64,000 nucleotides of DNA from the IMG/VR virus record IMGVR_UViG_2718218360_000002. One strand, written 5' to 3'. A program made the position numbers. The DNA comes from a virus. Taxonomy: Duplodnaviria; Heunggongvirae; Uroviricota; Caudoviricetes. Positions 21,001 through 24,000 of the stretch are shown piece after piece. Position 1 is the first letter of the stretch. Every line of letters begins with the position of its first letter.

Positions 21001-24000
21001 AGTGGGTGAAAAAGTTCTCAGAGCAGATTTTTAAAATTACTGGCGACGAGAATGCGGCAAAAAATGAATTAGAGCCGTGGACACCTGAAGGTGTCGACCC
21101 AAATTATTGCTGGTGGGATGTTGATCCAGTTGATGCTGCAAATGAAGCTATGAGTTATCACAACGATTAATGTCAGGAGGCCGCCCGAAAGGGCGGTAAT
21201 GAAAAGTGACTGAATTAACCAAAGAGAAATTAATCGAAGAAGCCAAATTAAAAATAGCGATTGCGAAATGCTACCCCAATTCAGGGATGGCACGGGTAGA
21301 GGGCGAGTTATTCAAAATTGCACTGGCATCGCTGGAAGCAGAACCGATAGCGTGGGAATGCGGTGAAAACATAATCCTGTTTAACCCTGACACAGTTGAA
21401 GCATACGCAAAACGTGCGGAAATATCACCTAAACCACTATTCTCCGCGCCGCCAGCGCTGGTAGTGCCTGATAAGTTGCCGCGTGAATACAGAAACGGTT
21501 GGCCTCTTGCGTATAGTGATTATGCTGAAGGCTGGAACGACTGCCGCGAAGCCATGCTTCAGGGAGATAAATCATGATTAATCGTATCAAGCTGGAGCAC
21601 ATCCTCGAATATGCCAGGCAGCAGAGGCATATTGGTCAGCATTGTAAAATTCCACCAGGAGATATGGTTGAAATCATGGAGATTGCCATGCGCAAGGCTG
21701 GCAACTCTCCGGTAACTCCGGATGGTTGGATAAGCTGTAGTGAGCGAATGCCGAATACCAAAACAGCCGTTCTTGTTGCCGTGGAGTTTGACAGGAAAGG
21801 TGACTGGCGAATGAAATGGGCTACTTACATCCCGGGGCATCCTGACGCTAATGATGGGTGGATAATTCCTGGTGCGTCGTGGAAACCGTCACACTGGATG
21901 CCGCTACCAGAACCGCCGCAGGAGGTGCGCCAATGATCTGGCCTGAAGCCTTTGCAATTACAGGCGTTGCTATAGCTATTGATTTTTTAGTATATGTTAT
22001 TTGTCGGTGGGGGTAAAAACGTTCGCCGGGATTCACACCAAAGGAGGGAATATGTCGGATGATATTTCACTGGCAATGGAAGGTGCGCTGGCTGTTATTG
22101 CTGTTGTGGGCGTTTACTGCCTGGTTGTGTTTTTGATGGATCGACTAGGGAACTGAATTCATTACGATATGGGAATTCCCATATCGGGTAAAAACGGTTT
22201 GCGGTAAAGCGAGAGTTAAGTAGAATTGCTGCGGGTGCTTGAGGCTATCTGCCTCGGGCATGAACACCAACGGCAGATAGAGAAAAGCCCCAGTTAACAT
22301 TACGCGTCCGGCAAGACGCTTAACATTAATCTGAGGCCATATCTATGCTCTACACACGTAGGTTAGCCTCTTACGTGCCGAAAGGCAAGGAGAAGCAGGC
22401 TATGAAGCAGCAAAAGGCGATGCTAATCGCCCTGATCGTCATCTGTTTAACCGTCATAGTGACGGCACTGGTAACGAGGAAAGACCTCTGCGAGGTACGA
22501 ATCCGAACCGGCCAGACGGAGGTCGCTGTCTTCACAGCTTACGAACCTGAGGAGTAAGAGACCTGGCGGGGGAGAAATCCCTCGCCACCTCTGATGTGTC
22601 AGGCATCCTCAACGCACCCCACTTAACTCGCTTCGGCGGTTTTTTGTTGTTTATTTTCGGTGAGCGTGATGCATCTGGTTGTACCGATGTGGCTGGCTGA
22701 TTCTGTTATTCAGGTGGTTTATTGCTGTTGATTGGCATGTCTTCACGGCTAGAATCGAGGCTCTTAAGTAGCGCGCAGGGATAAGAGGGATGGCCCCCAT
22801 AAGAGGGATGGCCCCCATAAGGGGAGGTGTTTATAGTTCATGGGATTTTTGTTATGAACGATAAGGAATTAATTGCTGCGCTTTCTATACCAGGTAATTA
22901 TGAAGTAATAGTTCTTGGGAATGGTGAGTTTATCGTAATGCCATTGCCATCTGATGTTATTCTGATCAGCAAAGAATCGCATGCGGATTCGGTCAGTTAC
23001 TTCAGCATTAAAAGAGACTAGATTATAATGCTGTAGTAAAGCCAGCCTGAACAACTGGCGTCTGTCGCACCATTACGAGGATAGTAGTGGTGCATTACAA
23101 GAAACTTAACAATTCTGATAATTCAGCCGTCTTTGCCAGCAGGCACGGGCGGTGTTCTCATGCATTCAAATCTGACTGGTTCCAGCATGACCCATGCACT
23201 GAAGAACAGGCCGAATGGCTGATTCAGTGCTACCGCAGGCGTGGTTACGAGTTTCAGAAAGATCTCAGCTTCGATCGTCGTCACTGGATAATCTCCGCCA
23301 GGCTCCCTTATTCCGAACGCCCACCGCGTCCGTCCCGCACATTCCAGCAGCGCATCTGGAGGTAACGTGCGGGTATTACTTCGACCTGTTCTGGTACCGG
23401 AACTCGGTCTGGTTATCGTTAAGCCAGGCCGTGAATCAATGTCAGTATTCCATAACGGCAGAATATTGGTGGAGCCGGAACCGAAAAACATGCGCGGTCT
23501 GCCGTCCGGAGTCGTTCCTGCCGTTCGCCAGCCGCTGGCAGAGGATAAAACATTACTGCCATTTTTCAGCGATGAGCGGGTTATTCGTGCAGCAGGTGGT
23601 GCAGGTGCACTGTCTGACTGGTTATTACGTCACGTGAAATCCTGCCAGTGGCCACACGGCGATTATCATCACAGCGAAACAGTCATTCACCGTTATGGTA
23701 CCGGCGCGATGGTGTTGTGCTGGCACTGCGACAACCAGCTGCGCGACCAGACATCAGAATCACTCGATCAACTTGCTCAGCAGAATCTGGTTGCCTGGAT
23801 GATTGATGTCATCCGTCACGCAATAAGCGGTACGCAGGAGAGGGAGTTATCGCTGGCCGAATTATCCTGGTAGGCGGCCTGCAATCAGGTGGTGGATGCA
23901 CTACCTGAGGCAGTAGCGCGTCGTTCGCTGGGATTACCAGCGGAAAAAATCCGCTCCGTATACCGTGAGAGTGACATCGTACCGGGAGAACAGACAGCCA

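Follow-up and report, generated by a model that had tools for sequence, protein, structure and literature searches.

What is a perfect 18-bp tandem repeat doing just upstream of a small prophage ORF? The repeat lies in a 64,000-nt stretch of Caudoviricetes DNA (IMG/VR record IMGVR_UViG_2718218360_000002), hereafter the window, and the original prediction, made from the sequence, offered two answers: a protein-binding iteron or a slippage-prone expression switch. Our analysis favors a third, namely that the repeat is probably a recent slippage duplication in the promoter-leader of a small antirepressor-like prophage gene, and neither an iteron array nor a phase switch. As a slippage polymorphism, the repeat by itself is nothing unusual; what makes it valuable is its location, in a promoter-leader that precedes rem-type genes, is strongly conserved and is unannotated.

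The perfect tandem duplicate of ATAAGAGGGATGGCCCCC at 22781-22816 was recovered by reading of the sequence, by Tandem Repeats Finder (22781-22825, period 18, 2.6 copies, score 83), by a repeat search and by a pattern search, for which none of 100 shuffled controls contained two or more matches. Further copies of the repeat block were not found elsewhere within the 64-kb window. An assembly artefact was rejected as the source of the duplication, because the same 461 bp are found, without a difference, in 22 complete genomes that were assembled independently; one IMG/VR contig also carries this two-copy stretch. What had been predicted immediately downstream needs more correction. The 'partial third copy' exists as a sequence, in that ATAAGGGGA (22817-22825) follows the tandem pair and equals ATAAGAGGGA minus one base, but it forms the loop and 3′ arm of a conserved small hairpin. 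It was also said to merge into a GGGGAGG ribosome-binding region of an ORF starting at 22857. The true start is ATG 22854, and GGGGAGG (22821-22827), which is the 3′ arm of the same hairpin, ends 26 nt before it and abuts GTG 22827 without spacing, so it was discarded as a Shine-Dalgarno (SD) sequence. The features of the locus (Table 1) are discussed below.

Table 1. Features of the repeat locus and its neighborhood, in window coordinates.
Feature	Position	Strand	Basis or remark
DicF	15751-15802		Near the 129-aa repressor gene
Short HTH repressor, 129 aa, DicA size class	16386..16775	-	ORF list; PHROGs transcriptional repressor/regulator families
sok/hok leader RNA family match	22233-22407		Rfam RF01794, 111.7 bits
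hokD toxin gene, upstream neighbor	22402..22557	+	RefSeq annotation of the identical FRIK2455 region
hok mRNA 3′ stem-loop and T-run, AACTCGCTTCGGCGG TTTTTTGTTG	22625..22650	+	Alignment
Predicted sigma-70 promoter: -35 TTGATT (22728-22733), 16-nt spacer, -10 TAGAAT (22750-22755)	22728..22755	+	Promoter scan
Near-invariant leader core CTTAAGTAGCGCGCAGGGATAAGAGGGATGG, two AGGGAT (GGA) motifs	22763..22793	+	E. coli genome matches
Repeat copy 1, ATAAGAGGGATGGCCCCC	22781..22798	+	Single unit kept in the one-copy allele
Repeat copy 2, ATAAGAGGGATGGCCCCC	22799..22816	+	18-bp unit inserted relative to one-copy strains (alignment; record spans 160 vs 142 nt)
Conserved small hairpin: CCCC, loop ATAA, GGGG	22813..22824	+	Per-sequence folds
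Inverted repeat TTATAGTTCAT / ATGAACGATAA, 11 nt, 91% complementary	22831..22864	+	Repeat search
55-aa ORF, WP_000998188.1, phrog_34610	22854..23021	+	Annotation
92-aa ORF, WP_001304183.1, phrog_1212	23087..23365	+	Annotation, PHROGs

A comparison of copy number across strains, proposed in advance, revealed variation between one and two full copies. The exact repeat context is present in 63 of 5,426 complete E. coli genomes, with two copies in 22 of these (near-identical O157:H7-type prophages), one copy in the rest and three copies in none; with a synthetic three-copy query, the records spanned only 160 or 142 nt, never 178. In aligned loci, the sole difference between the one-copy and two-copy genomes of this set is an 18-nt gap, and over 4 kb essentially only this indel separates one-copy O157:H7 strains, which have the same prophage genes, from two-copy genomes. 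The 22 two-copy prophages fall into two subgroups (at 100% and 99.9% identity) and are 99.9-100% identical to each other over 4 kb, consistent with a single event that was then inherited. The homologous leader occurs in ~2,300 further E. coli genomes, K-12 Qin included, and is single-copy in every one examined, in a survey that covered sampled E. coli records, aligned loci, ~200 viral contigs, other Escherichia, Shigella and one Salmonella.

The ancestral one-copy sequence already contains ATAAG twice, 18 bp apart (at 22781 and in the hairpin, in window numbering), the kind of microhomology that a single slippage would be expected to use. We infer a single recent slippage from one copy to two, templated by this pre-existing 5-bp direct repeat, with the duplication presumably passed on clonally within one O157:H7 group. 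The duplication copies the second AGGGAUGG motif together with the 5′ arm of the hairpin, resulting in one extra local stem-loop and a leader that is 18 nt longer, and is most likely neutral or near-neutral, or a mild modifier of expression. In these respects it belongs to the class of microhomology-flanked tandem duplications, sharing the short direct repeat, perfect copies, a single step and clonal spread, with no difference of substance. Rare recurrent gain and loss may be compatible with two alleles in 63 genomes, and the two-copy allele, having persisted through some diversification, could be tolerated or favored.

The repeat sits between the -10 box of the predicted promoter and ATG 22854, so its copy number alters neither promoter spacing nor reading frame. 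At the equivalent position, the promoter scan also has matches in K-12 Qin, a Salmonella locus and a Rac-like phage, which makes four unrelated upstream contexts with a match at the same place. TTGAnn and TAGAAT are kept at a spacing of 16-18 nt (the Salmonella -10 reads TAAAAT instead), while the spacer and upstream sequence are wholly different in at least six classes; this conservation of -35 and -10 around completely different spacers places the repeat within a predicted transcript. Transcription would start at ~22762, so that 22763 onward is a putative leader and the repeat occupies approximately +19 to +54. A minus-strand ORF at 22651-22818 (MGAIPLMGAIPL...) was dismissed as spurious because it spans the non-conserved promoter spacer. 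The predicted promoter is a stand-alone one that directly follows the hokD terminator, within the nin region of a lambdoid prophage of O157:H7, and it is insulated by the hok 3′ stem-loop. Relative to K-12, the stem-loop in the window has a C-to-T change and a 1-nt deletion, and a terminator scan detects the K-12 and Rac-like versions but misses that of the window.

Downstream of the promoter, the proposed unit would consist of an invariant core of ~31 nt followed by a small G-C hairpin whose loop is variable. The leader is matched in ~2,340 of the 5,426 E. coli genomes, sampled partial matches spanning 35 nt (22763-22797) at 97.1% identity, and the promoter-leader unit is conserved across Escherichia and Shigella prophages. 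Purine-rich and GGA-rich, the core precedes genes of three classes; a Rac-like phage has kept it, with a Rem that shares only 61.6% identity with the 86-aa Rem-class query. In 22 of 22 sequence variants, the hairpin keeps a G-C stem of 4-5 bp, in which C-G to U-A changes occur, and its loop, 3-7 nt long, takes at least nine different forms; the arms were not brought into register by MAFFT, and pairing was judged from per-sequence folds. A motif that ranks among the best conserved in the leader is part of the duplicated unit. A G-quadruplex formed from the four G-runs of the two-copy allele was considered and rejected, because 13-15 nt is too long for its loops and there are competing C-runs. 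Rfam (Rfam 15) searches of 22760-22860, at gathering and permissive thresholds, matched no family, and the leader sequence was not found in a literature search; we regard the promoter-leader as a modest new lead, previously undescribed.

A close known counterpart is the rem-DicA module of Qin (Ragunathan et al. 2023, PMC10448788), in which the same promoter-leader block, in single copy, lies directly upstream of rem in K-12. It occupies the same slot, after the hokD terminator and before a DUF968 gene and the Q gene, and the prophage studied here likewise has a short DicA-size repressor and DicF. Rem is the DicA antirepressor of Qin, and the only one known for DicA; the condition that induces it is stated as unknown (PMC10448788). 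The phrog_1212 ORF follows the 55-aa ORF here and follows rem in K-12, and is therefore probably part of the same transcription unit. The promoter-leader unit would drive rem in Qin, or short rem relatives, and in the window a 55-aa remote relative that shares the slot and the promoter-leader with rem.

The two modules differ in their protein: Rem and a 57-aa class both match phrog_340, whereas the 55-aa ORF matches only phrog_34610 (PHROGs) and is related to Rem only remotely, via the 57-aa class. A family of ~55-aa proteins was found by HMMER, and its alignment (17 sequences) matched the 57-aa class in hhalign over 49 columns (probability 86%, E 4.8e-6), while the match to a mixed Rem and 57-aa alignment is restricted to the N-terminal 24 residues (P 4e-4). 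Differences between variants of the ORF are concentrated at the third codon position. BLASTP of the 55-aa ORF against Rem gave no match, a Pfam search assigned no family, and Foldseek with the predicted structure (pLDDT 66.7) gave no match in PDB or BFVD at E ≤ 0.001; a search for other rem-type loci with Rem as query returned only near-identical K-12-type loci. The profile matches suggest that the 55-aa protein is remotely related to the small proteins of the 57-aa/Rem (phrog_340) group. It is a candidate antirepressor, and if it acts as one, the 129-aa HTH repressor would be the presumed target.

The leader could be a platform for a post-transcriptional regulator (CsrA on GGA motifs, or an sRNA) that silences the antirepressor-like gene, the duplication supplying an extra binding motif and thereby shifting the threshold at which this prophage is induced in one O157:H7 lineage. 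We consider this unlikely, albeit the best of the alternatives. It would suit the core being far better conserved than either flank, with recombination having shuffled the sequence on both sides. It would also suit the GGA content, which at 4-6 per leader of ~77 nt exceeds the mean of 1.2 across the window and falls in the top 0.3-4% of windows, with one GGA within the SD region (GGGAU / AAGGAU). Furthermore, AGAGGGAUGG looks similar to RUACARGGAUGU, the consensus published for CsrA from SELEX, and the duplicated unit contains one such motif. Long-range pairing of leader GCGCAG with ORF codons ~6-9 is predicted repeatedly, in three gene classes, and against synonymous-recoding controls this helix reaches p 0.013-0.09 in five of seven cases; however, the control fails in the other two, and common synonymous variants (UUA for UUG) disrupt the helix. 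A link between CsrA and rem was absent from the literature search, and trans-acting complements within the window (DicF, AgvB, STnc100 and others) were limited to chance-level 9-12-mers. Predicted accessibility of the start region is equal with one, two or three repeat copies, which argues against this regulation, although such thermodynamic folding does not reach effects via a bound protein or sRNA. Closer to the start codon, the inverted repeat at 22831..22864 encloses a weak SD-like GGGA, pairs with the start codon and is present in minimum free energy (MFE) folds; judged by eye, it is only partly conserved in other variants. An upstream mini-ORF at ATG 22841 (MGFLL*) was set aside as not conserved.

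In Gifsy-1, alternative RNA structures in the upstream leader and small ORF of IsrK-orf45-anrP gate translation of an antirepressor (Hershko-Shalev et al. 2016, PMC4825925), and at our locus, leader sequences are likewise predicted to pair with the start codon and early codons. The two systems have no detectable homology, and the leader here is without a trans-acting short RNA or terminator; the only isrK-like match, which scores 20 bits where the threshold is 50, lies in the hok 3′ end and off the leader. Carried one step further, the ~31-nt leader and hairpin would be the post-transcriptional input sensor of Rem-type antirepressors, through CsrA, another factor or the leader-ORF helix, and the 18-nt duplication a threshold-shifting allele in one cattle-associated O157:H7 group. 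This we hold to be quite unlikely, but, if true, the sensor leader would decide when DicA-type prophages, including those of O157:H7, become derepressed. The cis-element is now defined (the -35/-10 pair, the invariant GGA-rich core, the hairpin and possibly the leader-ORF helix), and a natural pair of one-copy and two-copy alleles in otherwise near-identical O157:H7 prophages makes the question directly testable. Pathogenic E. coli commonly carry DicA-type prophages, and the answer bears on the induction of these.

A DNA-level role, with the repeat unit bound by a repressor or replication initiator and the tandem copies acting as a cooperative array, is very unlikely. The conserved block does lie directly 3′ of the -10 box, a position from which roadblock operators can work, and the ancestral leader has two AGGGAT motifs at a distance of 9 bp, a third being gained with the duplication. 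The hairpin arms, however, tolerate loops of different length and compensatory changes, which suits RNA pairing better than a DNA site of fixed spacing. A LexA-type box (CTGT-N8-ACAG, at most one mismatch) was not found between 21794 and 24173, and a CTT-N10-CAG in the leader was rejected by eye as a LexA box because the essential G is missing and the center is GC-rich; sigma-32 and sigma-54 motifs and DnaA, RcsB, Fur and NarL boxes, inspected only by eye, were not conserved across variants. Iterons of plasmid and lambdoid replication origins are likewise direct repeats, with units of about this length (17-22 bp), but at least three regularly spaced copies are normal there, whereas there are two here and one ancestrally. 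Moreover, the repeat lies within a predicted transcribed leader, between hokD and the 55-aa ORF, outside any origin or replication gene and 3-5 kb from the replication genes (17570-19285). Together with the single copy at every other homologous locus examined (a pool of ~2,300 genomes), this speaks against the iteron originally proposed.

Of the proposed switch, the slippage-type duplication and the difference between strains, here of one serotype, stand, and a 12-nt tandem duplication at the rem start codon in related loci indicates that the region tolerates slippage, but a contingency locus flipping the ORF at high frequency is extremely improbable, since many alleles would be expected where only two states exist, the two-copy allele is limited to a near-clonal set, two copies of an 18-nt unit provide little slippage substrate, and neither promoter spacing, frame nor predicted accessibility changes.

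The repeat sits in a locus whose layout recalls the LexA-controlled antirepressor loci gfoA, gftA and gfhA of the Gifsy prophages (Lemire et al. 2011, PMC3121763). These are also small genes outside the immunity region and downstream of the replication genes, each with its own promoter preceded by a terminator-like palindrome (PMC3121763). The locus studied here differs in having neither a LexA box at the promoter nor a dinI homologue before the gene, its putative control element being instead the conserved, presumably transcribed leader. A DinI-like gene with LexA-type boxes is present elsewhere in the window, at 57.6-57.9 kb.

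The window region is a lambdoid prophage, 100% identical to that of the two-copy genome Escherichia coli O157:H7 FRIK2455 across the 6.5 kb tested, and its features are collected in the table below. The DUF968 gene is interrupted by an internal stop codon that leaves ORFs of 168 and 175 aa; the FRIK2455 annotation lists it as a pseudogene, and it is intact (WP_001302870.1) in the O157:H7 strains 2571 and M1300706002, which carry a single copy of the repeat unit.

Features of the prophage and other elements of the window
Feature	Coordinates	Strand	Remark
Short HTH repressor	16386-16775	minus	
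DicF	15751-15802	minus	Rfam gathering-level match
Replication genes			between HTH repressor/DicF and sok/hok leader
sok/hok leader and hokD	22233-22557		
hok 3′ stem-loop	22625-22650		5′ of repeat
55-aa ORF	22854-23021		3′ of repeat
92-aa ORF			next after 55-aa ORF
DUF968 gene	23367-24416		split by stop codon; 3′ of 92-aa ORF
rusA, then Q gene			3′ of DUF968 gene
STnc100	27334-27534	plus	Rfam gathering-level match
Anti-GcvB sRNA AgvB	27537-27598	minus	Rfam gathering-level match
162-bp tandem repeat	38947-39539		3.7 copies, 97% identical, TRF score 1053, nested 75-bp periodicity; presumably a repeated protein domain of a structural gene
TCAGACA x 4	50469-50496		perfect heptamer repeat

The 18-bp repeat is a genuine, recent and lineage-restricted duplication that is probably near-neutral. 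The perfect tandem repeat of the original prediction is borne out by the sequence itself (...CAGGG ATAAGAGGGATGGCCCCC ATAAGAGGGATGGCCCCC ATAAGGGGAGG...), by Tandem Repeats Finder (22781-22825, period 18, 2.6 copies, score 83), by a pattern search (exactly two perfect copies; two copies in 0 shuffles) and by a further repeat search with the same result. Its reading of the surroundings changes: the small ORF starts at ATG 22854 instead of 22857, and the GGGGAGG (22821-22827) taken for its ribosome-binding region ends 26 nt 5′ of this ATG and forms the 3′ arm of a conserved hairpin. What was described as a partial third copy is a second ATAAG, already present in one-copy sequences, plus this same arm.

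A 461-bp context query against 5,426 complete E. coli genomes finds the full context in 63, 22 of them identical and the remainder differing by an 18-nt gap only. With a synthetic three-copy query, the matches span 142 nt or, in 22 genomes, 160 nt and never 178 nt, resulting in two alleles and no third: copy number differs between strains as proposed, yet only between one and two. Over 4 kb, identity to the window is 99.9-100% for two-copy genomes and 99.5% (span 3983) for one-copy O157:H7 strains, which are set apart by essentially the indel alone and have the same prophage genes. A single IMG/VR contig, identical to the window, carries the duplication. This distribution fits one recent event that was clonally inherited. 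ATAAG already occurs twice in the one-copy sequence, 18 bp apart (GGG-ATAAG-AGGGATGGCCCCC-ATAAG-GGGA), and would provide the microhomology expected for a slipped-strand duplication, converting one copy into two. A separate 12-nt tandem duplication (ATGATGAACATG ATGATGAAC) at the start codon of rem, a gene at related loci, gives MMNMMMNIEEL... in three viral contigs (L044, L073 and L083), indicating that small slippage duplications recur in the rem-type locus. Slippage and the copy difference are the only supported parts of the original interpretation, as the repeat does not show the features that define iterons or contingency loci, the latter being the proposed expression switch. Direct repeats within a replication-organizer-like gene (17570-18538) are better origin-iteron candidates: 17935-17978 (15 nt x 2.9) and 18029-18062 (a 13-nt pair 21 nt apart).

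As a by-product, the repeat analysis provides a modest lead, a conserved and undescribed promoter-leader of rem-type genes. Among ~2,300 partial genome matches, most of those sampled are confined to 35 nt around copy one (22763-22797, 97% identity), a piece that in K-12 lies between hokD and rem of the Qin prophage. When aligned, the window, a one-copy strain, K-12 and two further contexts have a block in common, CTTAAGTAGCGCGCAGGGA(T/G)AAGAGGGATGG, followed by N-CCC(C), a loop and (G)GGGAG, with both flanks unrelated between contexts. Another ~200 copies come from Rem-based loci and from exact-pattern scans of viral and genome collections; they lie in Escherichia, Shigella and a single Salmonella, and all are single copy. 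The scans demanded an exact match to part of the block, so that its invariance is partly ascertained. The first 8-9 nt vary in the Salmonella and Rac-like loci, and the Rac-like phage retains the core though identity between its Rem and the 86-aa Rem-class query is only 61.6%. The leader has no family match in Rfam, and a literature search found no paper containing its sequence.

TAGAAT lies 7-8 nt 5′ of the block at every locus (TAAAAT at the Salmonella locus), with a TTGAnn hexamer 16-18 nt further upstream, while the spacer and all upstream sequence fall into at least six unrelated classes. Such conservation, limited to two hexamers and their spacing, marks a functional sigma-70 promoter, which this pair therefore appears to be; a consensus scan calls the site in the window (22728-22755), K-12, the Salmonella locus and the Rac-like phage. 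The block would then start at ~+1, placing the repeat at ~+19 to +54 of the transcript. On the minus strand, a 55-aa ORF (22651-22818) runs across the repeat, hence its MGAIPLMGAIPL start, and extends over the non-conserved spacer of the promoter; it is unlikely to be a gene. Further upstream, the hok mRNA 3′ stem-loop differs from that of K-12 by a C-to-T change and a 1-nt deletion (AACTCGCTTCGGC-GG vs AACCCGCTTCGGCGGG). A terminator scan detects the K-12 and Rac-like versions and not that of the window, so hokD read-through into the leader may be higher in this prophage.

Folding places a 4-5 bp G-C stem after GGGATGG in 22/22 sequence variants, with C-G to U-A exchanges, a CUCC/GGAG version and at least nine kinds of loops of 3-7 nt (UAAA, GAACA, GAA, UUAA, AUAA, UGAA, GAGA, GAAA, UCA and others). 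Loops of such differing length favour RNA pairing over a DNA site of fixed spacing. An intrinsic terminator is ruled out, as no T-run follows the stem.

The leader precedes three gene classes: Rem (83-87 aa), a 57-aa class with the same N-terminus as Rem, and the 55-aa class of the window. Recombination freely reshuffles upstream classes, hairpin types and gene classes among loci; the invariant core is therefore also a recombination joint. Rem is the antirepressor of DicA, with its inducing condition given as unknown (PMC10448788). Conserved length, and differences between variants that cluster at third codon positions, suggest that the 55-aa ORF is a genuine gene. It is part of a broader ~55-aa protein family, its PHROG family differs from that of Rem, and BLASTP against Rem finds nothing. 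Profile-profile comparison of its family with the 57-aa class (probability 86%, E 4.8e-6, 49 columns) suggests a remote relative of the Rem/57-aa group, and the ORF is treated as a candidate antirepressor. Klebsiella phage ST405-OXA48phi1.2 (L226, 820-1100) has an upstream element unlike the Escherichia leader: AAATAGGGGGTTG(C/A), repeated three times at ~120-bp spacing, lies 5′ of an unannotated ORF with a Rem-like C-terminus.

In RNA folds, the extra unit forms its own small stem-loop. With one, two or hypothetically three copies, the predicted unpaired probability stays at 0.00 for the start codon, which lies within an 11-nt inverted repeat (22831-41/22854-64), at 0.32 for the SD-like GGGA and at 0.31-0.33 for the -20 to +10 region, so on structure alone no expression change is predicted. 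We consider two hypotheses for the function of the unit. First, the leader holds 4-6 GGA per ~77 nt (mean 1.2), a type of motif that CsrA binds, and the one gained by duplication could add to such binding. Second, for each of the three gene classes a helix is predicted between ORF codons ~6-9 and the leader's 5′ portion (GCGCAG and neighbours). Synonymous-recoding controls are supportive of this helix in 5/7 cases (p 0.013-0.09) and not in 2/7, and common synonymous variants break it.

The leader is reminiscent of IsrK-orf45-anrP leader control, but without homology (PMC4825925). A sub-threshold isrK match in the hok 3′ region (22566-22645; 20.2 bits, gathering score 50) probably reflects generic stem-loop and terminator resemblance only. 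[quoted passage not shown] SOS-controlled elements do occur in the window, without a link to the antirepressor-like ORF: two LexA-type boxes, one perfect and one with a single mismatch (57889-57904 and 57918-57933), lie upstream of an 82-aa DinI-like ORF (57625-57873, minus strand) that adjoins a sensor-kinase-like gene (58373-60073), possibly in host chromosome.
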